A DNA stretch of 64,000 bases from a virus (IMGVR_UViG_3300046786_000370:15927-79926); one strand, 5' to 3'. Positions 14,345 through 33,235 are shown, counted from the first letter of the stretch. Translations and numbers: made by a program. Notes: generated by a model from the letters alone, not told the origin.

Positions 14345-14863
14345 TTAATTCTCCACTATCATCACTAAATGTAATCTTTTTTCTGTACTTCCATTCATGA
14401 AAGTATGCGGTTTAGTTGTATCCACCCACGTTGTACGACCATCTGCCGGCAAATGAAACATGACCATTGGATCTGTAATTAAAAAATTACATTGTGTATT
14501 AGTTACCAATGGCAAATGTAGTCTGGGACTATAGTCTTTGTGAATACTATAACATCCTTTTTCACGGGCTAACATTATTCTTGCTCTATACACAGGCACT
14601 GCCAGCCATTTAAAATAATCATCTATAGCAGTGCCTATTAGGCTAGGCTGTAAATGACAGAATTTATGTTCCCAGTCTTTAGTTTTAGCTGTACTATGTC
14701 CTGTGCCAGCTAACCAATTATCCACTGAAGGATCATCAGTTTGAATAGAAACTTGCCCGTCGGATCTATATTCCCAATCAACATATAATTTTGCTAGTTT
14801 TACGCATTGCTCGACTACTTCATTATAGCGAGGATACGCTGGCTTAAATTCTTTGTATAACAT
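14345..14863 (-). CDS. small 2OG-Fe(II)/cupin oxygenase (paralog family)
   Basis: [13 protein letters not shown], an HxD...H arrangement. Confidence 0.45.
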
Positions 14864-14871
14864 ACAATTAT

Positions 14872-15372
14872 TTATGAAAGTATGATATCCACTGCGGCAT
14901 CTTCACTGATATAATCATCAGTAGTAAAATGCGGATATTTCGCAAGAATTTTTGCTGTGCCTACATAAGCAAACCATCTATAATCAACTTTGCATTTTGC
15001 TACTTCAGCATAATGCTCTGACAGATATTTTAATGACGATTTCTCAGCATGATAATATCTAAGATGTCTATATTGCATACCAGTTAGTGAGTCATATTGT
15101 GCAATTCTACTGCCCACATTGATAATTCTTTTTTCAGGCAAATCTATCCAAGCATTTAACATATCAATTAACATATATGATTGTGCAAAATTTTCTGTGG
15201 CATTGTTTATAAACACGTCACAGTCGTAGCTTTCGTCGACAATTCGTTGCCTATCTTTTTTCTTATTAATGTCATAACCAGTGCTTCGACTGAATCCAAT
15301 TGAATTTGGGCTCAATCGTTCGAATGCTCTGAGTCCAATTCCTTCAGTATGGCCTGTAATCGCATATTTCAT
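14872..15372 (-). CDS. SDR-like NAD(P)-binding protein (paralog of 60945..61532)
   Basis: ITGHTEGIG glycine-rich N-terminus. Confidence 0.4.
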   Translation of the reverse strand: MKYAITGHTEGIGLRAFERLSPNSIGFSRSTGYDINKKKDRQRIVDESYDCDVFINNATENFAQSYMLIDMLNAWIDLPEKRIINVGSRIAQYDSLTGMQYRHLRYYHAEKSSLKYLSEHYAEVAKCKVDYRWFAYVGTAKILAKYPHFTTDDYISEDAAVDIILS

Positions 15373-16040
15373 TTATGTGCTATCCTTATACTAACGCCTA
15401 ATTTAGATTTACTCATCATTCTTCCTGTAGAATGTATGTGCTGACTGTCAAATACTATAGCTGATCCCGGAGTCCAGGAATATGCTGTTCCGCTCATGCT
15501 ATAAAAATAGTCACGTTCGAAGTGTTGACTGTCTATGTGTTGCCAAATTTCCTGGGGTAATTCAGTATTTGTACCACCTTGGAAAAATTCCCCATCACAG
15601 GGCCTTGAATTTGTTTTCTTATTACTGTAGAAATCACCGTCAATTTCAAAATTGCCTAGCCATGTAATATTCTTACCCTGCCAACGTTGATCAAATACAA
15701 TAAACTTTTGATCCTCTCTGGGCTCAAATCTTTGAATTGGTATAACAATATTCAACCATGCTTTATCTTCTATAGCGTCACAATGTGGAAAGTAACTGTG
15801 ACTGTGCTTATAAAAGTTGTCGCCTACAATTTTGTAGGGTTCATTTATGTTCAATTTGCGTTCAATCAAATTTGTAGCAAATTCATTGAATTCAATTTCG
15901 TCAAATGGCAACAATACTTTGTCCATGCCATGGCTGAATATGTGGTCATGACTGAGAAATATTTGCTTTAAATATTCTAATTCTGAATCAGTGACAATAT
16001 TTTCAACTAATTTGTGCATGTGTTTATTTAAGCCACGCAT
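15369..16040 (-). CDS. hypothetical protein (possible oxygenase)
   Basis: PHCDAIED...QHIHSTG looks like a loose HxD...H motif. Confidence 0.35.
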   Translation of the reverse strand: MRGLNKHMHKLVENIVTDSELEYLKQIFLSHDHIFSHGMDKVLLPFDEIEFNEFATNLIERKLNINEPYKIVGDNFYKHSHSYFPHCDAIEDKAWLNIVIPIQRFEPREDQKFIVFDQRWQGKNITWLGNFEIDGDFYSNKKTNSRPCDGEFFQGGTNTELPQEIWQHIDSQHFERDYFYSMSGTAYSWTPGSAIVFDSQHIHSTGRMMSKSKLGVSIRIAHK

Positions 16041-17043
16041 ACAATTTTTCAGCCTGGCCCTGTGTATGCCATTTATTGTCCCAATCTACGGCCCATTTCT
16101 TATATAAATCTATGCTTTTTAATTTGTCTGTGGTTAAATTAAAATATGGAAGATTTTTATCCCAATATTGTTCTGCGATATGCCTGGGAAATAGATTCAA
16201 TCCTGCGTGTTTCGGATATACAATTGGAAATGTATGTACAGGCAATTTCCAAAATTCCACAGTCTTCGGATAATCAGCTATAGTCCACGGCGTTACGCTG
16301 TAACTTATACTGGCATTACTGTTGTTTTTAATTATATCAACAGAGTCTAATAGTTCATCCCAGCTTGCGTCACGTCGAAACCATTCATAAGTGTCTTTGT
16401 AGCCTTCTATGCTAATGCTACATTGTACACTGGCCCAGCCTTTCCACAGATCCAATCTGGGTTTGATCAATCCATTTGTAATATAAACTAATTTACAATG
16501 ACTTCTATCGTAGTTACTTAAATGTTCTAATATTTTATAATGTGCGGGATCTAGAAATGGCTCGCCACCTGTGAATTTAATGTGATCCAAATTAGGCAAC
16601 AATTCGACTAATTCGGCCAGGAATTCATCTGTAACATCAAACGCATTTATAACATGTGGACTAATTCCCAACAATTTGCGCCAGCCACTGCTACGCTCGG
16701 GTCCACAATGAGCACAAGTCAATTGACATTTGTTGCTCATTTTAAATTGTATTGCACGAATTTCTCTTTGTTCACTGATAAATTTAGTGCCTGTACGCAG
16801 ACTCTGTTGTCCGTGTTCTTCTACTTGTCTACATCTATAACAAGCATATTCAGTGTCTGCGGTATAGCCTGTAGAATTTAAGTTTTCTCTCAGTGTTAAT
16901 AACTTAGGATGATTAAATGCTGTTTTAATTCCATTTTGAATTGGACTGATTCTGGCAGCATTGTCTGTTTCGCCACAGCAGGGTCTTGTCCAACCATCTG
17001 TTTCGATGCTAACCATGTTTTCTACCCAAGCACATTTTTTCAT
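16024..17043 (-). CDS. radical SAM enzyme
   Basis: CQLTCAHC (Cx3Cx2C) plus FTGGEPFL; Cys-rich N-terminal extension. Confidence 0.65.
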   Translation of the reverse strand: MKKCAWVENMVSIETDGWTRPCCGETDNAARISPIQNGIKTAFNHPKLLTLRENLNSTGYTADTEYACYRCRQVEEHGQQSLRTGTKFISEQREIRAIQFKMSNKCQLTCAHCGPERSSGWRKLLGISPHVINAFDVTDEFLAELVELLPNLDHIKFTGGEPFLDPAHYKILEHLSNYDRSHCKLVYITNGLIKPRLDLWKGWASVQCSISIEGYKDTYEWFRRDASWDELLDSVDIIKNNSNASISYSVTPWTIADYPKTVEFWKLPVHTFPIVYPKHAGLNLFPRHIAEQYWDKNLPYFNLTTDKLKSIDLYKKWAVDWDNKWHTQGQAEKLYAWLK

Positions 17044-17528
17044 AAGTTATTGGCCTCGCAGAATTCTTTGACTTGTTTGTAATTTAAAGGCTGATTAAAT
17101 CCCATGCTGAACATATATCTTAGATTGTTTCTGTTAATTACACCGTGCTTTTCATGTGTGTTTAAAAGATAATAACAATCTGGCTCATAGTTTAATTCAC
17201 GAATGTTCATGACTTCTTCTTCATCTGATTGTGTACCATAATATGTTTGACTATCATTACCCACTAATAGCATATTCAAGGCGCAACTTCTAATCGCATC
17301 TGTATGGAATCTATAGAATTGCCATGGTGGCATTCTAAATATAACAGGAACAGCATTAAATTGTTTGATTAATTTCACAATAACAGGATCATCTTTAATC
17401 AATGATTCGTGTACCATGGCAATATCAAAGGCATTTTTATGAATCCACTTAGTGTAATTGCTTTTTGCAAAATCAGTTAGTTGGATTCTACATGTACTTG
17501 TTGATGTTAATTTACTAAATTGTTCCAT
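17040..17528 (-). CDS. small 2OG-Fe(II) oxygenase-like paralog
   Basis: FHTDAIRS...HGVINRNN...R motif. Confidence 0.45.
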   Translation of the reverse strand: MEQFSKLTSTSTCRIQLTDFAKSNYTKWIHKNAFDIAMVHESLIKDDPVIVKLIKQFNAVPVIFRMPPWQFYRFHTDAIRSCALNMLLVGNDSQTYYGTQSDEEEVMNIRELNYEPDCYYLLNTHEKHGVINRNNLRYMFSMGFNQPLNYKQVKEFCEANNL

Positions 17529-18094
17529 GCCGCTAATCTTTTAAATGTGTTGTCGAAATTGTTGTCATGATATCTAATGCTAAAACAATATCTATATTCA
17601 TTGCTGTCATTGCTAATATTATGCGGTACACATACTTCTACCAGCGTTAATTTGTTTAAATTAACACCGTCTATTTTTTCACAGTCTGTGACATTAAAAG
17701 GCATATAACCAGTGCCTGCTTCTGTTACACTATATTTTGTATTAGAATTTAAAAGCCTGTACCAATTCATTGCGCCTATGCCGTTAACAACATAGTTAAT
17801 AGCACTTTTACTATCAAATGAATTGCCGTCGATGTGTATTCTTGTAAACGTTTTTGGCGGCGTTGTAAACATTTGAACTTCTCTTAGTTGAAATCCTAAT
17901 TGACTAAGTTTGTCAATTACTTCGTCAGTTAATACAACATTGGGCTGATATCTTCTAATTGGCTGAAATTCCCCGGGGATTTCAAAGTCACTGCGAATTG
18001 GATTGTAATCTGCAATTTCAAAATAATTCATTCTAGAAAATCCTTCCAATATTCCCTGGCATTGAACAATGGCTTTGGCACAGGAGGATCCCAA
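17507..18094 (-). CDS. small 2OG-Fe(II) oxygenase-like paralog
   Basis: IHIDGNS...PHNIS motif. Confidence 0.45.
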   Translation of the reverse strand: MGSSCAKAIVQCQGILEGFSRMNYFEIADYNPIRSDFEIPGEFQPIRRYQPNVVLTDEVIDKLSQLGFQLREVQMFTTPPKTFTRIHIDGNSFDSKSAINYVVNGIGAMNWYRLLNSNTKYSVTEAGTGYMPFNVTDCEKIDGVNLNKLTLVEVCVPHNISNDSNEYRYCFSIRYHDNNFDNTFKRLAAWNNLVN

Positions 18095-18588
18095 TTTAAA
18101 CTTATAGAAATTCTTTTACGTCCTGGTTCTATGCCACTGGCTGAATGCAGCTCTGGATTTACAGCAATGATATGCCATCTAAATGGTTCTACATGATGAC
18201 TTTCTATTATGTTTTTATCGTTGTCATACCAATGTGTCCATACATTGTCTCCGCCCGTGTCAATGAAATAATTAAATGCGTAATTGCGGCCATAGTCAAA
18301 ATGTATGGGATGACTTTCAGGACCTCTATCTGGGTTAGGTCTATGCTGTGATACGTGAATAAAAGGCATCATTAAATTTTGAGAAATATGTTTAAAATGT
18401 TTGAACACAATGTTTTCGTAGATCCACTTTTGTGCCATGGCAGGTACATAAGTTAGCCTAACAGCCTGTCCTTCTAATTCATTGACCTTCTTTAAAAAAT
18501 TGCTGGATTCAATTAGAGGCACCATATTTAAACATGGCTGTATAAACTCTTGTGGTATCTTGGGGAAATTTACATAACTAAAGTTCAT
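18028..18588 (-). CDS. hypothetical protein (possible oxygenase paralog)
   Basis: IHFDYGRN...HHVEP motif. Confidence 0.35.
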   Translation of the reverse strand: MNFSYVNFPKIPQEFIQPCLNMVPLIESSNFLKKVNELEGQAVRLTYVPAMAQKWIYENIVFKHFKHISQNLMMPFIHVSQHRPNPDRGPESHPIHFDYGRNYAFNYFIDTGGDNVWTHWYDNDKNIIESHHVEPFRWHIIAVNPELHSASGIEPGRKRISISLNWDPPVPKPLFNAREYWKDFLE

Positions 18589-18591: not shown

Positions 18592-19215
18592 CTATTTACT
18601 TTTAATAGTCTCCCAATTAAAGTTCCATGCTGTGTCTAATTTTTCATAGATGACCCATTGTGATGTGTATTGTATAGTAACTGGGAAAGTAACTTCGTTG
18701 AAGTTGCTATAACAGAAATGACGTGGCTCTCTGGGTGTTCGACTTTCTCCCAGTCTAGTTCGCTTCCATATAGCAATGATGTTTTTGTTGTAGTCATTGA
18801 ATGTTAGAGCAACTTGTTTACAGTTGTTTTTAATTGCCCATTGTTTATGCTCTGGTAACAAATAGTTTCTAGCAATGTTTTGATTTCTGTATTCTTCTGA
18901 TATCCATGTTCTAGTGCCAGCTAGTGCTATCAGTGAATTTGTTGCCAGTTTAGCAACACCGCCGCAGGCAATCGCTTTCTTGCCATCATAGACTACATAA
19001 AATGCACCTTCTTGTCCTTGGTATTTGTTTGTTTTTATTAGGATATAAGGCAGGGTGTTGGGTTTGGTATCCCAATGATCGTCCCACATATTTGCCCACG
19101 CAGGATCATCTGTTGTTTGTTGTTCTCGGAGAAAGTTAAAAAACTCAGTGACTTTTTTATCGCTGAGTTTGTAAAAGTCAATGACCTTCATTTTCGTATA
19201 ATTTGAATAACCCAC
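18592..19215 (-). CDS. hypothetical protein
   Basis: 207 aa ORF. Confidence 0.4.
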   Translation of the reverse strand: MGYSNYTKMKVIDFYKLSDKKVTEFFNFLREQQTTDDPAWANMWDDHWDTKPNTLPYILIKTNKYQGQEGAFYVVYDGKKAIACGGVAKLATNSLIALAGTRTWISEEYRNQNIARNYLLPEHKQWAIKNNCKQVALTFNDYNKNIIAIWKRTRLGESRTPREPRHFCYSNFNEVTFPVTIQYTSQWVIYEKLDTAWNFNWETIKSK

Positions 19216-19928
19216 TTAGTCACGTCAAATTCCCACCACTTGACTTGAAAACTGTAGTTGTAAGGATCGCCATGATGATTGTTGTGCCATCCTTCGCCCC
19301 AAGCAATTAAACCAGCAATCCAATTGTTTTTACTTTGTTCTCTTGTATCAGGATAATTTCTATAACCATACTTGTGTCCTAGATAATTAACTAGGCCCAT
19401 AGCAGTCCATAGTATAAAGCTAGGGAATACGTGGAATACCATCCAAGCATGAACTCCGCCGATTAGGTATAACGCAATGGCATAAGCGATGTTTATTTTC
19501 CAATAGTTTTCGTGAACTTTAAGCTGAAATTTATCACGAAGCAAATCAGGAACATATCTAACCTTAGGTTCAGCAAACATACTGCCATAAAAGCAATGTA
19601 CAAAACCCATGTATCTATTTGGAGTATGTGGATCATCTAGTTCTTTGTCGCTGTAACGATGATGTTGTCTATGAACGCTGACCCATCCAATGCTGGATCC
19701 AACACCGCCCAGTGTGCCTAATACTGTGCCAATTTTGCGAAATATATCCAGCGTTTCATAGCTTTTATGTGTAAGCAATCTATGAAAAGTAACTGTAATG
19801 CCTAGACAGCCTGTGATAAAGTAGACGGCAAAAGCGGTTGCATAGTCTATAGATGTAAATGTCATTATACAATAAATGACTGATACGTGGCAGAATAATT
19901 GCCACAAAGGTAGTTTGTATTGTTCCAT
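19188..19928 (-). CDS. membrane fatty-acid desaturase
   Basis: His boxes HRLLTH, HRQHHRY and WHNNHH. Confidence 0.75.
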   Translation of the reverse strand: MEQYKLPLWQLFCHVSVIYCIMTFTSIDYATAFAVYFITGCLGITVTFHRLLTHKSYETLDIFRKIGTVLGTLGGVGSSIGWVSVHRQHHRYSDKELDDPHTPNRYMGFVHCFYGSMFAEPKVRYVPDLLRDKFQLKVHENYWKINIAYAIALYLIGGVHAWMVFHVFPSFILWTAMGLVNYLGHKYGYRNYPDTREQSKNNWIAGLIAWGEGWHNNHHGDPYNYSFQVKWWEFDVTKWVIQIIRK

Positions 19929-19929
19929 G

Positions 19930-20502
19930 TCAGTATTTATCGGGGTCGCTGTCCAAGACTTCCCAGCCTAGCTTTTTCAAATCTGCTTTAATTTCATCTG
20001 TTACAACACTTTCGCTGACATAGGATTTAGATTCAATATATTGTTCTTGCTGTTCTTTGCTTAGTTCAGCAAACTGCTCGTCTAATAGCACAGGGCTATC
20101 GTTACGAATACCACTACAGTACCAATCAATATAGTCGCCTTGTTCGCGCATATCAGCAACAATTCCACCAGCATGGCGCCAACTACAACTCCAAGTCTTG
20201 CCTGCTAGCTTAGGCATAAATTCATTCTTTTGAAAGTCGTTGTTGCACATGGCCGCATAGAGATTCTGAGCATACGATTCTTTAGCACGAACCTTTTCAA
20301 GTATCCAATCAGTACTGCGAAGATCATACTCCATGTTATTTTCCTGCCATTCGGGATCTTCCATGTTAGCTTGATCCTGTTCCCTCCATGACTTGTACAT
20401 ATTAATGTAGTCTTGGTTAGGCAATTTACCTTGTTCTTCACAGCGTTTCACATATCCTTCTTTTTGAAAGGTATGACGATCTGGACTAGTTGATATTTTC
20501 AT
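19930..20502 (-). CDS. hypothetical protein
   Basis: 190 aa ORF. Confidence 0.4.
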   Translation of the reverse strand: MKISTSPDRHTFQKEGYVKRCEEQGKLPNQDYINMYKSWREQDQANMEDPEWQENNMEYDLRSTDWILEKVRAKESYAQNLYAAMCNNDFQKNEFMPKLAGKTWSCSWRHAGGIVADMREQGDYIDWYCSGIRNDSPVLLDEQFAELSKEQQEQYIESKSYVSESVVTDEIKADLKKLGWEVLDSDPDKY

Positions 20503-21227
20503 TATTCAAATTCCGGTAAACTAGGAGCATATACTCCCAAATGTCGAACTGTCACGGCGGCAGCTCTATTCGCATACATTATAGCATCTTCTATGTTATT
20601 TGTCTTTAAGTAAAAATAGCACAGAGTTGCCAAAAATGTATCCCCGGCGCCACAGACATCCACAACTTCTACTAGGGGCGCCGGGTACATTTTCTCTTTA
20701 TATAAACAACCATCTTTGCCCATTGTAACAATTATGTCTGTGGGTACCGAGGTTGTTGTGCTATGTTCAAAATCATTGATCTTAACATAGCATCCTTCAA
20801 ATCTTTTTAAATCTTTTTTCTTTGTATCTACGAAAATTGGACCCGAATATTGTTGCCTGAGTTGTTCGACAAATTCATAGGTTATAGTTCCTTTACAATA
20901 GTCGCTGACTACTATGGCATCATACAAACTTAAATCTACATCAACTTTGAGTGCTGTACAATTTTTGTCTTCGTCTATTCGTAGCATGTGTTGATGACTT
21001 TTAATGTCTAACATTCTTGTTTTAACATTAGTGTCTGTGTGTCTGTAATCAACTGTACAGTGCAATGCTTGTAGATTGCGTTTGACATTCCCAGCCATGC
21101 CAGGAATCTTTTGATAGTGATCCAATTTAACAATTGGAACCGGAGCTTCAGGGCTTAATCGTTCTACGTGACCGTATTGATATATGTCAACACAATCGTC
21201 CCCGCATAATAAAATTTTATAGCTCAT
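20502..21227 (-). CDS. PfkB-family sugar kinase, HldE/RfaE domain-I-like
   Basis: N-terminus ILLCGDDCVDIYQYG...LSPEAPVPIVKL matches the heptose-7-P kinase block; DVCGAGDTF ATP-site motif. Confidence 0.6.
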   Translation of the reverse strand: MSYKILLCGDDCVDIYQYGHVERLSPEAPVPIVKLDHYQKIPGMAGNVKRNLQALHCTVDYRHTDTNVKTRMLDIKSHQHMLRIDEDKNCTALKVDVDLSLYDAIVVSDYCKGTITYEFVEQLRQQYSGPIFVDTKKKDLKRFEGCYVKINDFEHSTTTSVPTDIIVTMGKDGCLYKEKMYPAPLVEVVDVCGAGDTFLATLCYFYLKTNNIEDAIMYANRAAAVTVRHLGVYAPSLPEFE

Positions 21228-21279
21228 ATCCTGTTTTATTTAACTTGGAATTTCGTTATCCATATCTATAAATATTATT

Positions 21280-21834
21280 ATGAAATTGCACACAGAAATA
21301 GATATCCCTGACGTAGAATCAATTAGAACACAGGCTTTAAAAATTATCAGTCCTGATAATTATAACGATGCCAAACCTTTATTTGCTAATATACCAGATA
21401 GCAAAAACGTATTTTTAGGCATACCCGAACTTAAACGATTCTTAGACCGCCAGGGCTGGACTGGATATATTACAGGAATAATGTTCAATGTTATTCAAGC
21501 TAAAACTGTGTCATTGATACATACCGATGCGCCTATGTTCAATAAAAGTTTCAATATACCGCTATGTGGATATGAAGAATCTTATGTTGATTTCTTTGCC
21601 AAAAAAGCTGAACCTACTCTTGTCAATGATGGTAACAATGCTATTTCAACTGAATTTAGATATTGGACATTTGAAAGAGAAGATGTAGAATTAATTGAAC
21701 GTTACAAAACTTCTGGTCCGTATATGCTAAGAACTGAGGTGCCGCATCAAGTAATAAATGATGGACCATCTAAACGTGTTAACTTGTTAGTAAGACTAAG
21801 TCACAAATTAGATATATCTAAGCACTATGTTTAA
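21280..21834 (+). CDS. small 2OG-Fe(II) oxygenase-like paralog
   Basis: IHTDAP...NIPL...PHQVIN...RVNLLVR. Confidence 0.5.
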   Translation: MKLHTEIDIPDVESIRTQALKIISPDNYNDAKPLFANIPDSKNVFLGIPELKRFLDRQGWTGYITGIMFNVIQAKTVSLIHTDAPMFNKSFNIPLCGYEESYVDFFAKKAEPTLVNDGNNAISTEFRYWTFEREDVELIERYKTSGPYMLRTEVPHQVINDGPSKRVNLLVRLSHKLDISKHYV

Positions 21835-21837: not shown

Positions 21838-21914
21838 TGGTCGGAGTACAAGGATTCGAACCTTGGACCCCCTGGTCCCAAACCAGGTGCGCTACCAGAC
21901 TGCGCTACACTCCG
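21838..21914 (-). tRNA. tRNA-Pro (TGG)
   Basis: Cloverleaf folded by eye with GGTTCGAATCC T-arm, anticodon loop TTTGGGA and encoded CCA. Confidence 0.65.
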
Positions 21915-21921
21915 AATTAAT

Positions 21922-26032: not shown

Positions 26033-26844
26033 TACGTTCTTTTCTTAATCAAATCAATGACAACGCCGCTGGGATCTACTTCCCACCAATTAACACGACC
26101 GAAATGGTATGCCTTTACGTCACCGTGGTGATTGTTATGCCAACATTCGCCTAATACCAATGGAAATAATATAGGTGCGTTGACGCTATTATCTCCGGTT
26201 TCATAATTTTTATAACCTAAGCTTTGGAAATGATTCAAGCAATTAGTTGCCGCATAGCTGTGAAATGTGATAAAGCTAGGAACTATGACAAACCAAATCC
26301 AAAAATCAAAACTAACTAATGCTATGATTAAATTTACTGCCCAGTACATTGGCATATAGTATTTGTGGCAAAATGCGTAAAAAGGTACTTTAAGTAAATC
26401 AATGATGTCTTTATAGTTAATGTCTTTTTCTTCAACTTTCCACAACCATAAGAACCAACTAGTAGCAATACCTTTTTTAGGTGTATGCGGATCTTTGTCT
26501 CCATCGCTATAAGGATGATGTAAGTTTCTGTGTATAGCGGTCCAGAATATAGGACTGCCCTGTCCTGCTAGCATGGCAAAGAATAGTATAACATATTTAA
26601 TAGGTGCCCAAGTTTCAAAACTCTTGTGACTAACATATCTATGATATCCGATAGTCACGCCTAGAACCATGATACAGAAGTAGCCCATGGCCAAATATAA
26701 CCAATAAATGTTTTGCCAATAACCCATGAATGCGCCAACAATAGCACTTACTGCAATTAAATTCATAGGTATTAAACCTCCCCATAAATTTTTATACTTA
26801 AAGGTTAAAGTTATAAATTCTTTGAATGTTAATTTGTTACGCAT
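26032..26844 (-). CDS. membrane fatty-acid desaturase
   Basis: His boxes HRYVSH, HRNLHH and WHNNHH. Confidence 0.75.
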   Translation of the reverse strand: MRNKLTFKEFITLTFKYKNLWGGLIPMNLIAVSAIVGAFMGYWQNIYWLYLAMGYFCIMVLGVTIGYHRYVSHKSFETWAPIKYVILFFAMLAGQGSPIFWTAIHRNLHHPYSDGDKDPHTPKKGIATSWFLWLWKVEEKDINYKDIIDLLKVPFYAFCHKYYMPMYWAVNLIIALVSFDFWIWFVIVPSFITFHSYAATNCLNHFQSLGYKNYETGDNSVNAPILFPLVLGECWHNNHHGDVKAYHFGRVNWWEVDPSGVVIDLIKKRT

Positions 26845-28015
26845 TTTTATTCCAGTTATAGGTTTTAGGCACCAAGTGTTCCCACTTTTTCGTACCAGTT
26901 CTTACTCTTATTTCACTATTTAGTAGAACTTTGCCCATGCTACCCCAAACCCAGTCTATGTCGGGCTGTGTGTTGGGAGGAACAATAATACTCCATTCAT
27001 AGTCATATGAACTGTCTATTTCTTTAAAATATCTATCTGCCACAGCCTGATATCTTCTGCTGTTTGTAGCAGGGATAACCATGTGCCATTTCTTTAAGCC
27101 GAAGCCTTCGCAGACTTCAAACATCTTAGTCCATAACTCTAGCATGCCGTTTGTTCTCACTGTATAACCAGGACGGCTTTTTAAATTACCTACTACCCAG
27201 CCATCGTTGTATGGTGCCGGTAAATCACATCTCCAACTCATACAACTAACTAACAAATCATCTTCGAAGTATCCATATAAGTGATGTACACTATCTTGAG
27301 GTTCTAAATACCACTTTTGCATGCCTTCTAGCCAGCGTGTTCTATATCGTAGAATGTCGCCAACATCATCAGCAAGCACATCGGTGATATTACCTTTTGT
27401 GTTGACTAAATCTTTTAATTGACCAAAGTCACTCATTGTTAGTCTGTGTATGCCGTTCTTTTTAGGATCTTCAACGTTTTTCCAGTCACTGATTTTACTA
27501 ACATCACCGTGATATATAATCTTTTGCCAGCACGATTCATCTTGTTCATTATTACAAGTTAAAAACTTTTCATCTGGAAGATAAAATTGTAGCCCAGTCA
27601 TTGCTGTCAGCTTTTTAGAAGCCCATCTTTGCCACTTACCGTCGCCTTGACGACTCATGAATACACCGTCGGCTTTTCTAAGTTCACACCAATTGATTTG
27701 ATCTTCTAATACCTTGGCAAATCCTTCATTGATATCAAAAATAGGATTAGACAAAATGTTTGGCTTCCATAGCCTATTTAGAATACGATAAGTGTTGTCT
27801 GGCCAACACGGTCTTTGTAATATGCTACAAACTATCTCGGGCTCTCCTGAATGTCCCCAATAAATAGTCTTAGCACTAACTTCACTGACATGATCCGGGC
27901 TGTAGTTTTTGTATAATCGATGTCCAACTTTGAGATAATGTAATTTTCTCAACTCTTCGTATATACCGTCTAATACTGGATCTGATACCCAAGTTACTGC
28001 TTGATTCTTATACAT
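26837..28015 (-). CDS. hypothetical protein
   Basis: 392 aa ORF. Confidence 0.45.
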   Translation of the reverse strand: MYKNQAVTWVSDPVLDGIYEELRKLHYLKVGHRLYKNYSPDHVSEVSAKTIYWGHSGEPEIVCSILQRPCWPDNTYRILNRLWKPNILSNPIFDINEGFAKVLEDQINWCELRKADGVFMSRQGDGKWQRWASKKLTAMTGLQFYLPDEKFLTCNNEQDESCWQKIIYHGDVSKISDWKNVEDPKKNGIHRLTMSDFGQLKDLVNTKGNITDVLADDVGDILRYRTRWLEGMQKWYLEPQDSVHHLYGYFEDDLLVSCMSWRCDLPAPYNDGWVVGNLKSRPGYTVRTNGMLELWTKMFEVCEGFGLKKWHMVIPATNSRRYQAVADRYFKEIDSSYDYEWSIIVPPNTQPDIDWVWGSMGKVLLNSEIRVRTGTKKWEHLVPKTYNWNKNA

Positions 28016-28186
28016 AATTTAAAAATGAAATTAATTCCTAGTCCTTGCAAAAGTATTTGTAGAATTCAAAACAATGTTTGTGTTGGTTGTAAACGCACTA
28101 AAGACGAAATTAACACTTGGTCTAAGTTGTCTAACGAACAGAAAAAAATCATTGTTGATAGAATTTCTAATCAATCTACTAATTAA
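28001..28186 (+). CDS. DUF1289-like small Cys-rich protein
   Basis: CKSICRIQNNVCVGCKRTKDEINTW pattern; plus-strand ORF in an inter-gene gap. Confidence 0.35.
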   Translation: MILIHNLKMKLIPSPCKSICRIQNNVCVGCKRTKDEINTWSKLSNEQKKIIVDRISNQSTN

Positions 28187-28830
28187 AGATATTTACACCT
28201 GTTAGGGTATTTTTCAGCACTTCTTTTAAAATGCTCTATCATCAAATCTTTGTCTTTGAGATTGTGTAGAGTTAACAAAATAATTTTGTTCACGCCATCT
28301 TCTCTATTAGAGCCATGTAAACATGTTGCATTGTTGTACGCAAACATATTTGTTTCTTTTGGCAAATCCGCATAGTTTACACCGCCTTGTGGATGATAAA
28401 CCTTGAAAGTTGGCAATGGATTTTCGTTGTAGATCATCGATCTAATAGCCACTGCTTCTGGAGCATAATCTCTGTGATATGGTATAGGTTGATTGCTCAT
28501 CCACAATCTACAAAATATAATCTCAGCCCATGGACAGGCCGCTTCTAAGTCTTCTATTACATTTGGAAATATTTCTTTGTAATCTAAAAAAGGCACTTCC
28601 CAGTGATTGTTTTCTAACATACTACTGTGTTTAGCGTAGATGTTTAAGCCTTTAAAGAAATCAATCTTTTTAGAATTTTCCGATGCTGTATTTCCAGCTG
28701 GATCGCTTTTTACAATATGACTAGAACCAGCATGTTTATTCCATGCGTTCCAGAAAAAGTCCCAATCATTTGGCTGTATCGGGGGTGCGTCTAATACAGT
28801 CCACACTAAATTTTCTTCATTAATATTCAT
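28183..28830 (-). CDS. cupin/2OG-Fe(II) oxygenase-like protein (tandem triplet member 1)
   Basis: YHRDYAP...CLHGSNRE. Confidence 0.45.
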   Translation of the reverse strand: MNINEENLVWTVLDAPPIQPNDWDFFWNAWNKHAGSSHIVKSDPAGNTASENSKKIDFFKGLNIYAKHSSMLENNHWEVPFLDYKEIFPNVIEDLEAACPWAEIIFCRLWMSNQPIPYHRDYAPEAVAIRSMIYNENPLPTFKVYHPQGGVNYADLPKETNMFAYNNATCLHGSNREDGVNKIILLTLHNLKDKDLMIEHFKRSAEKYPNRCKYL

Positions 28831-29495
28831 TGTAATTCCCAGGCTAGACCTTTGTCTTTAGATTCTTGTACTTGTTTTAACAATAAACCTTGATCTTTAA
28901 CTCTGCCAAAACTCTTCATCAATACTTTATAGTGACTAGGATCATAATCCGCACCATGGAAGAATTTTAGATTATTAAAGGCAAAGGTATTACGTTCTTG
29001 ATTATATGGAACGTATTTCTCTTCTCTAGTTTCGTTGCTACGTAGTTTAAATGTAGGACTTGGATTGTTGTCATATATTAAACTACGAACAGCCACAGGA
29101 GCAGGCTGTAATGGAGCAGGATCGATGTGATAAAACACTGGCTTAATACAAGCCCATAACACAACTACTTCACATTCGTACCATGGAAGTTTTTCTTCCA
29201 TTTCTTCTACATAAGCATTCCACATCTCAGGAGCATCTAATACAATGTTTTGCTTCCATGTACTACCTTTGAGATAGCTGTCATTCTTCATCCATGTAAT
29301 CATACCTTCGAAGTTGGCAGTATTATAAAGCAGTTGCAAATCATTGCCGCCACTGCTTAAATCTCCTAGGTTGTCTTTTTTCATTTTTGTTAACAACTCT
29401 TTTTTATCATTCCATATGTCCCAAAACAGAGGCATATTATTAGGATATAAAGGTGCAACGTCTGGTATGAAATATCCTATCTTGCTTAAATCCAT
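28827..29495 (-). CDS. cupin/2OG-Fe(II) oxygenase-like protein (tandem triplet member 2)
   Basis: FYHIDPAP...FFHGADYD; ATGA coupling with its neighbour. Confidence 0.45.
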   Translation of the reverse strand: MDLSKIGYFIPDVAPLYPNNMPLFWDIWNDKKELLTKMKKDNLGDLSSGGNDLQLLYNTANFEGMITWMKNDSYLKGSTWKQNIVLDAPEMWNAYVEEMEEKLPWYECEVVVLWACIKPVFYHIDPAPLQPAPVAVRSLIYDNNPSPTFKLRSNETREEKYVPYNQERNTFAFNNLKFFHGADYDPSHYKVLMKSFGRVKDQGLLLKQVQESKDKGLAWELQ

Positions 29496-30139
29496 TATTC
29501 TATTCCTTCATATTTCGAGCCGGCAGCTATTTCATTATTTATATAAGCTTTCAGTCCTTCTGGATCTACTAATGGTCCGTCTATTCTAACTAATACTTTA
29601 CGACCGTTCATCGGTGCATGCGCTCCATGTAGATAGTTTTCATTATTAAACAAAAATAAATTCGGACCTGTTCTTAACTTAGGTGTCAATAATTTGTATC
29701 TTGCTTTACTGACAAGAAAAAATGTATCATTTTCACATTCGTCTAACAACGCAATCCTCGGAGCACTTGGAAATAAATCCTTGGGCAATCCGTCGTGATG
29801 TGCTTTTATTTGTTGCTTGTTTGACCATAACGTGATTCCATGTATGTCATACCACGGCAAAGATTCTAAAATCCTTTTATTCATTTCGCCAAACAATTCA
29901 TCATTTGGTTTGTAGTTAACACGCCAAACAATTTGATTCTGGTAGCCGGGCTTTTGCCATACTGTTACGCCATCCCAAAACTCGCCTTCAAAGCCGCCAC
30001 CATTACCTCTGCTGTCTTTTTGTATTCTTTTAATTGGGATATTAACTTCATTCCACCATGCCCATAATTTTTCGCTGTCGATTTCAAAGCGAGGCAAGTT
30101 TGGTACAATGTATCCTAATTTAGATAAATCATCAACCAT
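29495..30139 (-). CDS. cupin/2OG-Fe(II) oxygenase-like protein (tandem triplet member 3)
   Basis: KAHHDGLP...YLHGAHAP. Confidence 0.45.
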   Translation of the reverse strand: MVDDLSKLGYIVPNLPRFEIDSEKLWAWWNEVNIPIKRIQKDSRGNGGGFEGEFWDGVTVWQKPGYQNQIVWRVNYKPNDELFGEMNKRILESLPWYDIHGITLWSNKQQIKAHHDGLPKDLFPSAPRIALLDECENDTFFLVSKARYKLLTPKLRTGPNLFLFNNENYLHGAHAPMNGRKVLVRIDGPLVDPEGLKAYINNEIAAGSKYEGIE

Positions 30140-31538
30140 TACTTTTTCCTTCTATCAAATGCCATGGGTCATTATAAAATCTAAAACTCAAACTTACTCT
30201 AGGTTTGTCTGTGTTGTTTACTACGCTGTGAACTTTTTTAACATTTAAAATAACCGGCTTATCTAACACATAATTAGCCTGTGGATCAACCCCGCTGACC
30301 AAATATCTATAATAAGGTATATATGTTCCCTTAGTCATTAATTTAATAGACGTTAGACCTTCTTCATCCCACATTTCAGTTGTTACTTGATCAGTATTTG
30401 TAACAGGAAAGTTGATAGCTAAAATCTCGTCGCCGTCATCTAGATGAGGACTTTGCCTTGTGTTTGGCGGCGTAGATATATAAGCAACCTTAATAGGATT
30501 AATTTTATTTGCTGTACACCACTTTTTAAAACTAGGCAATGCTTCTAAAACTTTACGACAGTCGATTATTTTAAAATAACTATCTGGTACAGGATTGTCT
30601 ATGTAAAACTGATCTATTTCTTTTTTGATATCTTCAAAGGCACCGATACCTAAATAATTATAGTAAAATTTTTCGGCACGCCAGTACGGTGCTAGGCCTA
30701 TCCTTCTGTTATGTTTGTCATAAGCAAACAGAATACTCTTTGTCGGAGTTAGATTATACTTTAAACAAATGTTTTCTAATTTGTTTCCGTAAGTATCCCA
30801 CCAATAAGTCAGTGGCATTTTTTCTAATAGCTTAGTAGCTAAATTAACCCCAGATAAATTCACGTAACCTATCCAATTAAGAACCTCTAACTCTGGTATT
30901 TCTTTTTTAGAATATAAAAGACTAATTCTATTGTAAGGTATAGACAGTGATTTACTAAAACTTACGCTAATAGTTTCGAAGGCAGATACATCAATTTGAT
31001 CAGGTTCAGTTAAACCTAAATAAGCGCAATCTAAATGCACTCTCTTAGGATTACATTGTAATGCAAAATCTAGTTCGGTTCTGTCGCCTTGACTATATCC
31101 GGGCCAGGAAACTACCATATCGTCGACATTTTTAGGCTCTTCTAAAATCTGACATTGTTTGCCAGACTTTTCATGCCAGTGAGAATAATAACTATAATCT
31201 CCTTTTTTAAATGCAATGTTACCAACACGTCTGAACAATTCGTCAAGACTGTGCGAATTGCCATTCATAACATATACATACGGGAAATTTCTTTTGGTAA
31301 GATTAAAGAGCCAGTTGCTGGCCCATTGTGTTGCTAATTTTTTTAATTTTGCTGTTGTATCCCATCGTTCTTTCCAATGGAATTCTCTATCCCATGGGCT
31401 ATACATTTCGATAGTATTAGCCTCACGGATAATGTCAGAGACAAAATCATCTCTGATGGGCTTTATAAGTGTTTTATAAAACTCATCTATATGATTTAAA
31501 TCTCTGTGTTCGTCTGCTTTTAAAACGTCATTAGACAT
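30132..31538 (-). CDS. large hypothetical protein
   Basis: 468 aa ORF sitting between the oxygenase triplet and ACP. Confidence 0.45.
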   Translation of the reverse strand: MSNDVLKADEHRDLNHIDEFYKTLIKPIRDDFVSDIIREANTIEMYSPWDREFHWKERWDTTAKLKKLATQWASNWLFNLTKRNFPYVYVMNGNSHSLDELFRRVGNIAFKKGDYSYYSHWHEKSGKQCQILEEPKNVDDMVVSWPGYSQGDRTELDFALQCNPKRVHLDCAYLGLTEPDQIDVSAFETISVSFSKSLSIPYNRISLLYSKKEIPELEVLNWIGYVNLSGVNLATKLLEKMPLTYWWDTYGNKLENICLKYNLTPTKSILFAYDKHNRRIGLAPYWRAEKFYYNYLGIGAFEDIKKEIDQFYIDNPVPDSYFKIIDCRKVLEALPSFKKWCTANKINPIKVAYISTPPNTRQSPHLDDGDEILAINFPVTNTDQVTTEMWDEEGLTSIKLMTKGTYIPYYRYLVSGVDPQANYVLDKPVILNVKKVHSVVNNTDKPRVSLSFRFYNDPWHLIEGKSNG

Positions 31539-31758
31539 TTAAATGATCCAGCAAATGGCCAACAGTTCTGATGTCATTTTCTGGGTCTGGAATTTCTACG
31601 TTATATCGTTTTTCAAATTCCATTTGAAGTTCAACAATATCTAAACTGTCTAATCCAAGATCTTGGATTGGTGTGTCTCTGTTAATTTCTGGAAGTTGCT
31701 TTTTAAATAAATCATCGAAGGCCGATTTTAAAAAGTCAAATTTTTCTTGGTCTGTCAT
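31531..31758 (-). CDS. acyl carrier protein
   Basis: LGLDSLDIVEL phosphopantetheine-attachment motif; 75 aa acidic protein. Confidence 0.7.
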   Translation of the reverse strand: MTDQEKFDFLKSAFDDLFKKQLPEINRDTPIQDLGLDSLDIVELQMEFEKRYNVEIPDPENDIRTVGHLLDHLNV

Positions 31759-31804
31759 GTTGTCCTCATTAAAAAATTATAAAGTATTTAAGAAATTGTG
31801 CCAC

Positions 31805-33235
31805 TTATTTTAATTGGTCGAAGATGTAATTAGAAATAAATGCATGATGTTTGATGCCCATTTCTTTCCAATTTAAATCTACTACCTTTGTGTTTCTTAC
31901 TTCGTCGTAGTCATAGCCTAAATTAGCATAGTTAGGTATGTACCATGTCATAGGCTTTACCATGTTTATTCGCCTGTCGTCATAGTTTAATTTTTGAGCA
32001 ATCGTGATGGCATCTTTAAAATTGTAAGTGCTGTGTTCCCAATAGTCTGTGTCTGCGGGATTAGGAAATGTTATTCCATAGTCAGAGGCATGTTTTTCAA
32101 ACTCTGTGCCTTTGCCGTTTTTATTTAAAAACAATTGAAGGAAGAACCAATTGTCTGCTACTTTGTTTTCTAACAACCATTCCTGTGTTTCTAACAATGA
32201 TTGTTCTGTTTCATAAGGCAAACCTGCGATAAAACTACAAGTAATAGATACGTCGTCTTTCCAAATATCTTTTAGTTTTAATAAAAAGTCTTTGCCGTAC
32301 TTGCCATTCCAGCCTTTGCCTAGACAAGAACTTGCTTCTGGATGAAAACTTTCTATGCCAAAATATGTTGATTTAAGTCCACTTAATTTTAACAGTTCAA
32401 TGGTATGCGGATTAACGCCGATGACATCTAATCTATTATAACCCAGCCATTCAAATTTAAACGGCATTTTTTCTGCAATTTTAGCCAGCCTTTCTATTTT
32501 AGATGAGCTTTCATTTACAGTATCATCCATGATTTGATATCGAGTAGTGCCAAACATTTCATAGTTACGCAGTAATTCATCTTCGATATGAGACTCATCT
32601 CTTAGATAAGTATCTACCTTTTTTCCCACTAATGGATAGCTACAAAATTTACATCTAAACTGACAGCCACGTGCAAGTTCTATGGGCAACGATTCTCCTG
32701 GCTGAATACTAGCATCATCATAAAAACATGCTGTTAAATTTTTAATATCAAAAGGTGAATATGCTGGTGTATTTTCAGTCTTTTCATTCATGTACTTTAA
32801 AAGACTGTCTTCGGCAAAGCTAACAAATTTTCTCCATTTAAATCTGTCTTCTTTACCCAAGTGGCCTACACCTGTATGGCCTCCTAATAACCAATCTAAC
32901 TTTGGATGTTTGATTTGTAGAATAAATCTAGCTGATTGTACCCATTGCGGTTCATAATACTGATCTTGATTTAAGTCGTAGTAATCTTTATGTTGCCTAT
33001 TTGAGTAAGCAGTAGGCTTCCAAAAAGTTGAACTAACGCCAATGGCAATAGTTTCAGGACCAATATGTTTTTGTGTAATTTCTATTAGTCTTCGAGTGGG
33101 TATAGCATGACAAAAATCAATAACCTTTGCGGTATATCCGTGCTGTCGTAGCCAATGAGCTAGAATGTGCGGTCCGATTGGTCTAGTTACGTTTACTGGT
33201 TCGTTAAAACTATTCCATAAAATTATTTGTGCCAT
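31805..33235 (-). CDS. B12-binding-domain radical SAM enzyme
   Basis: CQFRCKFC (Cx3Cx2C) at residue ~190 after an N-terminal B12-binding-like domain. Confidence 0.65.
   Translation of the reverse strand: MAQIILWNSFNEPVNVTRPIGPHILAHWLRQHGYTAKVIDFCHAIPTRRLIEITQKHIGPETIAIGVSSTFWKPTAYSNRQHKDYYDLNQDQYYEPQWVQSARFILQIKHPKLDWLLGGHTGVGHLGKEDRFKWRKFVSFAEDSLLKYMNEKTENTPAYSPFDIKNLTACFYDDASIQPGESLPIELARGCQFRCKFCSYPLVGKKVDTYLRDESHIEDELLRNYEMFGTTRYQIMDDTVNESSSKIERLAKIAEKMPFKFEWLGYNRLDVIGVNPHTIELLKLSGLKSTYFGIESFHPEASSCLGKGWNGKYGKDFLLKLKDIWKDDVSITCSFIAGLPYETEQSLLETQEWLLENKVADNWFFLQLFLNKNGKGTEFEKHASDYGITFPNPADTDYWEHSTYNFKDAITIAQKLNYDDRRINMVKPMTWYIPNYANLGYDYDEVRNTKVVDLNWKEMGIKHHAFISNYIFDQLK

Follow-up and report, generated by a model that had tools for sequence, protein, structure and literature searches.

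The region at positions 14345-33235 of a 64,000-nucleotide stretch of viral DNA (IMGVR_UViG_3300046786_000370:15927-79926, hereafter the window) encoded an acyl carrier protein (ACP), radical S-adenosylmethionine (SAM) enzymes, membrane desaturases, GNAT-fold acyltransferases, an aminotransferase-oxygenase fusion and many oxygenase-like proteins. A first-pass annotation had described it as resembling a biosynthetic gene cluster (BGC) for a modified acyl chain. The reading tentatively preferred here is that two or three co-transcribed modules perform thiotemplated tailoring of a fatty-acyl (lipid-like) chain inside a larger accessory-gene island, and that they do not form one classical BGC. This reading is based on the folds, catalytic residues, gene linkage and co-conservation that were observed for the encoded families.

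Genes in the window were taken from longest open reading frame (ORF) calls. Module 1 extended from 33235 to 24733 and was composed, in order, of a cobalamin-type radical SAM enzyme, the ACP, the fusion of an aminotransferase with a 2-oxoglutarate (2OG) oxygenase, three cupT proteins, a tandem GNAT protein, a desaturase, a cupA protein and a cup24 protein (cupA, cupT, cup24 and cup15 are used here as names of oxygenase-like families with an HxD...H motif). Neighbouring genes overlapped by 1-8 nt; the two exceptions were a spacer of 46 nt that follows the radical SAM gene and a 167-nt interval containing an opposite-strand DUF1289 gene. Module 2 extended from 21227 to 14020 and was tightly packed, in the order kinase-like protein, desaturase, GNAT protein, three cupA proteins, N-twitch radical SAM enzyme, cup15, minimal short-chain dehydrogenase/reductase (SDR), cupA and ErpA. 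For comparison, about 50 related loci from IMG/VR viral contigs and other metagenome assemblies were examined over ~10 kb on each side (loci are numbered L001 onward), and their ORFs were labelled by family hidden Markov models (HMMs) built locally from the same loci that they label.

The ACP gene (31531-31758, minus strand) encoded a protein that matched PP-binding at 45 bits against a cut-off of 20.8 and carried the DSLD motif already reported by the first-pass annotation. The phosphopantetheine-attachment serine within LGLDSLDIVEL was intact, and the degenerate homologue lacking this residue, which had been raised as a possibility, was not what was found. The protein was identical to E. coli AcpP at 26 of 61 positions, with a pI of 4.3, and its gene overlapped the downstream gene by 8 nt. 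A housekeeping AcpP identity was not obtained, with TIGR00517 scoring 48 bits, below 70.45, and every other AcpP equivalog cut-off also missed; the protein is therefore a divergent, dedicated carrier. No phosphopantetheinyl transferase (PPTase) was found among the ~70 larger window ORFs scanned.

The 468-aa fusion protein (30132-31538, minus strand) consisted of a HisC-like pyridoxal 5'-phosphate (PLP) aminotransferase in residues 1-~290 and a cupA-type Fe(II)/2OG oxygenase in residues ~291-468. Its AlphaFold2 model had a predicted local distance difference test (pLDDT) score of 86.7, and Foldseek gave HisC and other class I/II aminotransferases as the best matches, at ~1e-10. The sequence profile matched HisC (3hdo) at 4e-4 with the D..Y, SxSK and R motifs aligned. 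In 47 homologues, residues Asn94, Asp170, Ser195, Lys196, Asn203 and Arg204 were invariant and Tyr173 was nearly so, which corresponds to the PLP-binding set. The aminotransferase domain, at ~275-290 aa against ~350-400 aa for the full two-domain fold and with Foldseek TM-scores of ~0.5 when normalised to the target, is a truncated class I/II variant. The C-terminal half joined the cupA family at 2e-35. A serine-palmitoyltransferase or other alpha-oxoamine synthase identity was rejected because no alpha-oxoamine synthase occurred among the fold or sequence neighbours; the top 50 Foldseek matches and all PDB profile matches were of the HisC, AspAT, KAT and CobD types.

Among 87 metagenomic homologues of the 468-aa protein, most were stand-alone proteins of ~275 aa covering the N-terminal 58%, and a few of these carried PF00155. 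The stand-alone aminotransferases were often followed by a separate cupA gene, and in 5 of 11 cases cupA was either joined to the aminotransferase in one protein or encoded by the gene after it. The fusion in the window and the adjacent genes elsewhere thus form a Rosetta-stone link between the two activities. The aminotransferase profile found no relatives in 185,579 species genomes.

The 392-aa protein GNAT3 (26837-28015, minus strand) showed the GNAT alpha/beta fold in tandem, and its C-terminal domain was homologous to stand-alone ~200-aa proteins. The first-pass annotation had left the 392- and 468-aa proteins as possible acyltransferases or glycosyltransferases; the former proved to be a tandem GNAT acyltransferase, which ruled out a glycosyltransferase, and the latter was neither of the two. 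A second acyltransferase overlooked at that stage, the 207-aa GNAT2 (18592-19215, minus strand), matched Acetyltransf_1 weakly and the GNATs 3jvn and 1tiq by profile at 3e-3. Its start was probably at 19191, as in the 199-aa call of JGI, so that it would overlap the desaturase gene by 4 nt. The GNAT2 family had at least 647 metagenomic members, named GNAT by JGI, and usually adjoined desaturase pairs, with L048/49 as the exception. GNAT2 and GNAT3 were not a single family, as hhalign found no relation between them, and neither gave a subfamily-specific match. In L048/L049 (positions 1-6600), the commonest GNAT2 variant with 56 index blocks, three TctC receptor genes, an NMO-family gene and two p393 paralogs preceded GNAT2, and a 479-aa methyltransferase, CMD, AhpC and NifU followed it, so that different cargo occupied the same genomic slot.

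Each GNAT gene was accompanied by a gene for an SCD1/DesC-type membrane desaturase. The desaturase beside GNAT3 (26032-26844, minus strand) matched FA_desaturase at 3.6e-14 and carried the boxes HRYVSH, HRNLHH and HNNHH together with transmembrane-like segments. The desaturase beside GNAT2 (19188-19928, minus strand) matched at 1.5e-19 and aligned with mouse SCD1 (4ymk) at 4e-19 with its His boxes in register. As the first-pass annotation had stated, two more lay outside the region, as a tandem SCD1-type pair at 47408-48942 on the minus strand whose orthologues adjoined GNAT2 in L001, L011, L013 and L016-18. All four paralogs had three His boxes of the patterns HxxxxH, HxxHH and HxxHH and hydrophobic segments, matched PF00487 at 54-71 bits against a cut-off of 29.7, and were mutually 34-38% identical.

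The first gene of module 1 (31805-33235, minus strand) encoded a 476-aa radical SAM enzyme of the cobalamin type (class B-like) with a Pfam Radical_SAM match and a CxxxCxxC motif, in agreement with the first-pass call of a B12-binding radical SAM enzyme. Residues Cys191, Cys195 and Cys198 of the motif CQFRCKFC were invariant in 11 homologues. The family profile matched CysS at 8e-15 and TokK at 1.4e-14 (~57 bits), and the alignment extended into the N-terminal Rossmann domain of these two enzymes, at the GG motif. Pfam gave no B12-binding match, the Rossmann assignment being a profile alignment, and the relative AprD4 was also matched; AprD4 is known to carry a Rossmann-type cobalamin-binding domain without using cobalamin. 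In NCBIfam, partial matches to the PhpK, ladderane and HpnJ B12-radical SAM families were obtained, and all equivalog cut-offs were missed widely. The gene product is probably a C-methyltransferase.

The second radical SAM enzyme (339 aa; 16024-17043, minus strand) likewise had the cysteine-rich N-terminus described in the first-pass annotation, in the form of a putative four-Cys 'twitch' domain preceding Radical_SAM. It scored 168 bits against the cut-off of 170 for N_Twi_rSAM (NF033640), and residues Cys4, Cys22, Cys68, Cys71, Cys106, Cys110 and Cys113, which comprise both Cys sets, were invariant. Homologues of cupA and cup15 flanked it in 9 of 9 IMG/VR loci, often together with an SDR. The N-twitch profile found no relatives in the same 185,579 species genomes; the lack of cellular relatives of this family and of the aminotransferase, at the sensitivity of the scan, indicates that they are not simple host-derived auxiliary metabolic genes (AMGs).

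Oxygenase-like genes with the HxD...H motif numbered 13 inside 14345-33235 and 18 in the window. The cupA family was defined as 13 window proteins joined by an iterative local HMM and anchored to Pfam Asp_Arg_Hydrox through the protein at 14345-14863; eight members lay inside the region and five more at 41.4-44.8 kb. The cupA paralogs were ~23% identical, yet residues His87, Asp89, His158 and Arg168 were invariant in 13 of 13. His87, Asp89 and His158 correspond to the 2-His-1-carboxylate triad and Arg168 to a 2OG-binding arginine. The protein at 14345-14863 (minus strand) was the sole member passing the PF05118 gathering threshold (25.2 against 22.6 bits), and the other 12 were linked to it by the iterative HMM. 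Besides the C-terminal half of the fusion protein, the members within the region were encoded at 25484-26032 (minus strand; 1e-30), 22685-23230 and 21280-21834 (both plus strand, with paralogy as additional evidence), 18028-18588, 17507-18094 and 17040-17528 (all minus strand), each assigned by the iterative HMM and the invariant motif. The likely true start of the gene at 17507-18094 was an ATG at 18031, which gives a 4-nt ATGA-type overlap; overlaps of this type are usual among the other genes of the module, and the longest-ORF starts of this gene and of GNAT2 probably lie too far upstream. The five outer members (41383-41916 minus, 41946-42491 plus, 42486-43013 minus, 43266-43886 minus and 44302-44841 minus) were interleaved with tRNA genes. 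The nearest solved relative of cupA was Cpz10, at a marginal E-value of 1.4e-3; Cpz10 is a small 2OG-dependent beta-hydroxylase of caprazamycin biosynthesis (PMC9814697).

The triplet of cupin oxygenases named in the first-pass annotation was a true paralogous trio at 28183-30139, and it undercounted the set, as ten more HxD...H genes were present in the region. These three cupT paralogs (29495-30139, 28827-29495 and 28183-28830, all minus strand) were assigned from paralogy, the invariant motif and weak in-register hhalign matches to cupA and cup24. In 14 family members, residues His123, Asp125, Arg137 and His180 were invariant and Lys190 nearly so; cupT gave no Pfam match and no PDB sequence match. 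The distant oxygenase-like protein cup24 (24733-25482, minus strand) aligned to cupA with its motifs in register, and followed the desaturase and cupA genes in L021, L024 and L031. The HxD...H motif of cup15 (15369-16040, minus strand) was read by eye, and its homologues stood beside the N-twitch radical SAM gene in L001 and L003-L011. The hhalign probability to cupA was 78% for cup24, 20% for cupT and 13% for cup15 (not significant), and none of the three had a Pfam match. The idea of one superfamily for all HxD...H proteins stood for cupA and cup24, with a weak link for cupT and no significant one for cup15. The enrichment is far above chance, with paralog expansion accounting for part of it.

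Module 2 contained further enzymes that had been listed in the first-pass annotation. The SDR-like reductase was present as a minimal protein of 166 aa (14872-15372, minus strand) with the motifs TGxxxGIG, NNA, S and YxxxK and profile matches to FabG-type SDRs at 1e-9 to 1e-10, and an SDR gene followed the N-twitch radical SAM and cup15 genes in L009-L011. The HldE-domain-I-like sugar kinase also existed, as a truncated PfkB-like protein of 241 aa (20502-21227, minus strand) with a PfkB C-terminal match. Its score against the full-length domain I model (TIGR02198, rfaE_dom_I, ~315 aa) was 144 against 345 bits, over three stretches, and a genuine HldE domain I was not recovered. Kinase homologues with 50% identity were found in L014, L018 and L019; membership of the kinase in module 2 is uncertain. 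The protein listed as IscA, really ErpA, and the ferredoxin lay outside 14345-33235, by 2 nt and 1.5 kb respectively. The former was an ErpA/IscA-type Fe-S insertion protein (14020-14343, minus strand) with a Fe-S_biosyn match and an ErpA score of 164 bits against a cut-off of 117, and a Fe-S_biosyn gene was also near the cluster in L053. The latter was an FdxA-type 7Fe ferredoxin (12470-12793, minus strand) with Fer4 and DUF3470 matches, scoring 168 bits against a cut-off of 135 for FdxA_Protbact, and is a possible electron donor.

Comparison of the related loci showed that divergent relatives (33-55% identity) retained the gene set despite extensive rearrangement of its order, so that the lack of co-conservation named beforehand as a reason to abandon the cluster idea was not observed. 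GNAT3 was immediately followed by a same-strand desaturase in 14 of 21 non-redundant cases (naive binomial p ~8e-16, shared ancestry ignored). In 8 of 14 lineages the gene next upstream of the aminotransferase was that of the ACP (naive binomial p ~6e-12, with the same neglect of ancestry), and the ACP stood beside GNAT3 and a desaturase in four loci, L014, L015, L045 and L053; a dedicated carrier was thus conserved together with tailoring enzymes. Reshuffled sets were seen in lineages of no more than 33-44% identity. One operon of L001 contained cup15, an unassigned gene, the N-twitch radical SAM gene, GNAT2, two desaturases and the B12-type radical SAM gene. In L051 the order was GNAT3, B12-type radical SAM, desaturase, ketosynthase and aminotransferase, and in L053 an ACP-GNAT3-desaturase-cupA-cup24 series lay opposite two cupA genes and an aminotransferase gene. 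FabF-like ketosynthases occurred in two lineages, adjoining the aminotransferase, and had the Cys/His/His motifs of elongating FabB/F enzymes. An alpha/beta-hydrolase gene adjoined the ACP gene in L029-34. A census of 49 unlabelled proteins embedded in the relatives' clusters contained TauD dioxygenases, nitroreductases, TylF O-methyltransferases, Rieske proteins and GDSL lipases, and single copies of an FA_hydroxylase, an ATP-grasp enzyme and a class II aldolase. The earlier idea of biosynthesis of a modified acyl chain was thus partly supported, by co-conservation and by the ketosynthase, FA_hydroxylase and GDSL lipases of some relatives, and its form as one contiguous 19-kb BGC was not. As a separate observation, L045 13388-14908, L015 11055-12278 and L021 12706-13413 encoded a NodU/CmcH-type carbamoyltransferase, an ATP-grasp ligase and a TylF-type O-methyltransferase, which are natural-product or glycan tailoring types.

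The region was not the unbroken 19-kb minus-strand stretch originally described. Modules 1 and 2 were separated by a sigma70-like site, four tRNA genes (21838-22672) and plus-strand genes, and the four plus-strand genes within 14345-33235 were at 21280-21834, 22685-23230, 24383-24739 and 28025-28186. The promoter-like site, located in the intergenic space between the modules at 24314-24286 on the minus strand, matched the sigma70 consensus at 12 of 12 positions (TTGACA, a 17-nt spacer and TATAAT) and had an extended -10 TG. Past module 2, the same strand ran on into genes for a Bax1-I homologue, a redoxin, dCMP deaminase, an exoribonuclease, a QueD-like protein, TerC, isocitrate lyase and a dicarboxylate symporter. 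Upstream of module 1 lay further members of the set, namely a PP-loop ATPase and a third radical SAM enzyme (39.2-41.3 kb), the five cupA genes and the desaturase pair. Because the strand continues into unrelated genes and more family members lie upstream, positions 14345 and 33235 are arbitrary limits, and the stretch between them does not make up one cluster, with members spread as far as 39-49 kb. The genes form at least two or three transcription units in an accessory island of at least 35 kb that also holds 34 tRNA genes and unrelated AMGs.

A second sigma70-like site (11/12) was observed at 24020-23992, and such sites were not enriched overall in the window. The T4-late-type sequence TATAAATA was rejected as a general promoter, with 9 sites against 8.7 expected and no enrichment. 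Five of the nine copies of TATAAATA lay 5-25 nt upstream of cluster-gene start codons, at 33260-33267, 21267-21274, 39165-39172, 41922-41929 and 41933-41940; the first was just upstream of the B12-type radical SAM gene and the second preceded the plus-strand cupA gene at 21280-21834.

The following substrate, order of steps and product are proposed for the tailoring modules. The phage ACP would be primed by a PPTase of the host, which is required because none was found in the window, and would carry a host-made acyl chain, extended by the phage where relatives encode a ketosynthase. The aminotransferase would turn an oxo group, such as the 3-oxo group that a ketosynthase leaves behind, into an amine; a 3-oxoacyl intermediate is suggested by the position of the aminotransferase gene directly after the ketosynthase gene in L051. 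With glutamate as the amino donor, 2OG would be released for the fused or adjacent cupA oxygenase, and the fusion would be explained because transamination with glutamate yields the co-substrate of the oxygenase. The GNATs would transfer the acyl chain to an acceptor, each coupled to a membrane desaturase that introduces double bonds, the CysS/TokK-like radical SAM enzyme would methylate unactivated carbons, and the cupA, cupT and cup24 oxygenases would hydroxylate. ErpA and FdxA could supply clusters and electrons to the Fe-S and di-iron enzymes. The product may be a modified membrane lipid, an aminolipid or a lipid-like small molecule or effector made in the infected cell. The more specific proposal that a freshwater-type jumbo-phage lineage has its own carrier-protein pathway, built largely of virus-only families, for making a new lipid that is desaturated and bears amino, methyl and hydroxy groups, whether an aminolipid, a ceramide-like lipid or a lipid signal, is unlikely on present evidence. 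Its steps would comprise loading or extension of the chain on the phage ACP, transamination of an oxo-acyl intermediate with delivery of 2OG to the fused oxygenase, (N-)acyl transfer by GNATs coupled to dedicated desaturases, and C-methylation by the cobalamin-type radical SAM enzyme.

Several observations weigh against a tailoring pathway. No AMP-binding ligase (acyl-ACP synthetase or fatty acyl-AMP ligase, FAAL), PPTase, thioesterase or glycosyltransferase was found among the ~70 larger window ORFs or the 49 embedded proteins of relatives. The loading and release enzymes of a BGC (FAAL/AasS and thioesterase) were thus missing, the hydrolase beside the ACP being confined to L029-34, and priming, loading and release are left unexplained; the glycosylation suggested in the first-pass annotation is likewise without an enzyme in this set. 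The adjacency statistics ignore shared ancestry, and no ACP was near the aminotransferase in 6 of the 14 lineages. In its most widespread variant, GNAT2 adjoined TctC, NMO and PP-loop genes with no desaturase nearby, which suggests a positional rather than functional linkage for this protein. The modules are split by tRNAs, opposite-strand genes and a consensus promoter, with unrelated AMGs around them. The label of oxygenase for cupT and cup15 derives from motifs and from weak or non-significant profile matches. Finally, 13-18 paralogous oxygenases of variable copy number (cupT ranged from 2 to ~7 copies among relatives) are unlike a fixed pathway.

Alternatively, the genes could be a collection of independent AMGs and expanded paralogs in a hyperplastic, tRNA-rich genome arm, where synteny would be due to shared ancestry and to use of the same insertion hot spot rather than to a pathway. 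The unrelated AMGs in the window (isocitrate lyase, dicarboxylate symporter, TerC, dCMP deaminase, QueD-like protein, Bax1-I and ClpP) and the 34 tRNA genes, the interruption of the modules, the wide variation in the number of oxygenase copies and the failure to find loader, PPTase or thioesterase genes all agree with such an island. GNAT2 often stood where a conserved block (p190, endolysin) gave way to a variable island, whose cargo was TctC/NMO in L048/49 as against desaturases and a radical SAM enzyme in L050 and L012-17. Stand-alone phage desaturases are established AMGs (PMC5776448), and in this case the desaturases alone would adjust host membrane fluidity as in cyanophages while the oxygenases acted on assorted host targets. 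The close packing of genes on one strand, with stop codons that overlap the next start, the aminotransferase-oxygenase fusion, the recurrence of the GNAT3-desaturase and ACP-aminotransferase pairs across lineages that are otherwise scrambled, the ketosynthase-aminotransferase operon of L051 and the two families without cellular relatives at the sensitivity of the scan are not expected of unrelated cargo, and an explanation by independent AMGs is on balance somewhat unlikely.

An improbable alternative is that the genes remodel the lipopolysaccharide, lipid A or another outer-membrane glycolipid of the host, by LpxO/OlsC-type acyl hydroxylation and core-heptose chemistry, which could block superinfection or alter the cell surface. 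PF05118, to which cupA is linked in the window and also in L025, L052 and L053, includes the lipid A and ornithine-lipid hydroxylases LpxO and OlsC. The HldE-domain-I-like kinase, the carbamoyltransferase and TylF-type O-methyltransferases of relatives, which are typical of glycan tailoring, and the proteobacterial, Gram-negative host to which ErpA, FdxA and TctC point are in line with this role. However, the kinase is a truncated protein whose score falls far short of the HldE cut-off, the PF05118 similarity is marginal with one paralog above threshold, and the nearest solved relative of cupA is a nucleoside-antibiotic hydroxylase rather than LpxO. A glycosyltransferase, an Lpx-type acyltransferase and a heptose adenylyltransferase domain were not found in the window or among the relatives' embedded proteins.

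Maturation of a ribosomal peptide or modification of phage or host proteins by the radical SAM enzymes, AspH-like hydroxylases, GNATs and carrier (C-methylation, beta-hydroxylation and N-acylation) would fit the classical hydroxylation of proteins by PF05118 enzymes, to which cupA is linked, the secondary matches of the N-twitch enzyme to SPASM/twitch maturases of peptides that are made by the ribosome and modified after translation (RiPPs) and to the cyclopropyl synthase structure 8vpo, and the weak matches of the B12-type enzyme to RiPP C-methyltransferase families and of the ACP to a peptide-maturation ACP-related family, but it is highly improbable, as all RiPP-family scores were far under their cut-offs, a precursor-peptide search of the intergenic gaps gave the DUF1289 Cys-rich protein as the sole short conserved ORF, and SCD-type desaturases, ketosynthase, FA_hydroxylase and GDSL lipases are lipid enzymes.

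Thiotemplated tailoring, the reading retained here, was compared with known systems. In bacterial polyyne clusters (cay/pgn), a designated ACP and several membrane desaturases act on one carrier-bound acyl chain, which provides a precedent (PMC9828172). The phage set shares the combination of an ACP with several membrane desaturases and differs from these clusters in two respects, since a fatty acyl-AMP ligase and a thioesterase are needed there and neither was found in the window or in the relatives' embedded proteins, and since the phage set is viral and adds a PLP aminotransferase, GNATs, cobalamin-type and twitch radical SAM enzymes and many 2OG oxygenases. The JamABC-type alkyne cassettes are a related case. 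In synthetases of the iturin/mycosubtilin type, a ketosynthase, a class III aminotransferase domain and a carrier within a megasynthase give beta-amino fatty acids. A similar logic may apply in L051, where the ketosynthase gene is directly followed by the aminotransferase gene, a position held by the ACP gene in most other lineages, whereas the phage aminotransferase is a free-standing, truncated HisC-like class I/II protein and no ketosynthase is present in the window.

Among individual enzymes, CysS and TokK, which methylate unactivated carbons, are the best solved relatives of the B12-type radical SAM enzyme and share the CxxxCxxC core, with a profile alignment that runs into their N-terminal Rossmann domain, although the similarity is low (~57 bits) and the NCBIfam equivalog cut-offs were all missed. 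Cpz10 and the PF05118 members LpxO/OlsC resemble cupA in length (~180 aa), the HxD...H triad and the distal Arg, whereas the match of cupA is marginal and its 13 divergent paralogs per 64 kb are uncharacterised. The coccolithovirus EhV encodes a sphingolipid pathway, and the bacterial ceramide route proceeds through Spt, ACP, bCerS (a GNAT) and CerR (an SDR). Both resemble the phage set as multi-gene systems with a PLP enzyme, an ACP, a GNAT-type N-acyltransferase, an SDR and desaturases or hydroxylases; unlike them, the phage has a HisC-type PLP domain with no alpha-oxoamine synthase in the top 50 fold matches, and a bacterial host, and no ceramide-specific marker was found.

To our knowledge, phage lipid auxiliary genes have so far been known mainly as single desaturases, and multi-enzyme viral lipid pathways only from giant eukaryotic viruses. 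Cyanophages encode DesC-like delta-9 lipid desaturases (vFAD), which have been regarded as AMGs that stand alone and act on the glycerolipids of the host (Roitman et al. 2018, PMC5776448). The desaturases of the window are likewise phage-borne SCD/DesC-type di-iron membrane enzymes with three His boxes and a dependence on ferredoxin and O2, but they occur as four paralogs, paired with GNATs and embedded among ACP, aminotransferase, radical SAM and oxygenase genes. A literature search within the searchable library found no description of a phage ACP/desaturase/radical SAM cluster. Each part belongs to a known superfamily, and the subfamilies of the aminotransferase, GNAT2, GNAT3, cupA/cupT and the N-twitch radical SAM enzyme are uncharacterised. 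Read as tailoring modules, the system would combine viral lipid AMGs with bacterial thiotemplated fatty-acid tailoring.

If the more specific proposal of a largely virus-only carrier-protein pathway for a new lipid is true, no thiotemplated system for lipid biosynthesis would have been described in a bacteriophage before it. A conserved phage module of this kind would show natural-product-like, carrier-protein-dependent chemistry in bacteriophages, serving to remodel infected-cell lipids or to make a lipid effector. The uncharacterised virus-only families (the ~275-aa aminotransferase, GNAT2, GNAT3, cupA and cupT) gain a testable functional context, and the fusion suggests in-situ supply of 2OG, which is a simple biochemical hypothesis. 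If the genes are instead independent cargo, the window would still be a record of Fe(II)/2OG oxygenases expanded to an extreme degree within the tRNA-rich arm of a jumbo-phage genome.

Additional genes accompanied the modules. The DUF1289-like small Cys-rich protein (28025-28186, plus strand) was recognised as an ORF with 63% identity to a PF06945-annotated protein at the same position in L024; its family also occurred in L030, and its gene occupied the apparent gap between the cupT genes and the tandem GNAT gene. The 393-aa PP-loop (SGGxDS) ATPase p393 (39180-40361, plus strand) was paired with the third radical SAM enzyme, rSAM3 (40358-41338, minus strand), and both families travelled with the cluster in relatives. 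Genes of the p393 type were directly upstream of the aminotransferase or ACP gene in L041, L021 and L025, and an rSAM3-type gene was upstream of the ACP gene in L024 and L031. The p393 protein was 72% identical to its L001 homologue (L001 14223-15428), as against 34-44% for neighbouring cluster genes.

The source was treated as an uncultured jumbo phage and the region as part of its accessory arm. Megablast of the whole region against 50,697 GenBank phage records matched tRNAs alone and gave no close relative, and tblastn with the B12-type radical SAM enzyme and the 468-aa protein found no match to close cultured relatives. Identical copies of the 468-aa protein were present on a 79.9-kb JGI contig and one short Logan contig, and homologues with 54-72% identity were on contigs of 290-356 kb. 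A proteobacterial and hence Gram-negative host is hinted at by the sequence, as ErpA and FdxA exceeded proteobacterial equivalog cut-offs and relatives carried TctC genes. The 'Acinetobacter phage MD-2021a' record (L054, CAKLQH020000002.1) was rejected as a phage relative, as the surroundings of its desaturase look like a bacterial chromosome (trpB/trpC, btuB, baeSR and aidB).

The window had a GC content of ~38% and was transcribed nearly entirely from the minus strand. All 34 tRNA genes were on this strand, at 21838-49219, interleaved with the oxygenase paralogs; several anticodons were duplicated, among them Pro-tgg, Val-tac, Ala-tgc, Asp-gtc, Glu-ttc and Thr-tgt, and Met-cat occurred three times. 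PHROGs contained no family for the 392-aa, 207-aa, cupT, p190, p189 or p393 proteins. The 190-aa acidic protein p190 (19930-20502) had no family match, yet it was the best-conserved gene of the neighbourhood (52-65% identity) and was often near the cluster edge or an endolysin block in relatives. Positions 1298-12793 held host-like metabolic genes for a sodium:dicarboxylate symporter, SBP_bac_3, isocitrate lyase, TerC and a PTPS/QueD-like protein, together with an Rv2179c-like exoribonuclease, dCMP deaminase, redoxin, Bax1-I and FdxA. The isocitrate lyase (403 aa, 344 bits), together with the dicarboxylate transporter, is unusual for a phage. A 164-aa ORF at 35920-36414 contained the tail of a PCRF domain together with an RF-1 domain and corresponded to a truncated release-factor-like protein. 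The window also encoded an SPFH/Band7 protein, a ClpP protease (265 bits) and a GH19-like putative lysin (54879-55676, 61849-62436, 5557-6192).

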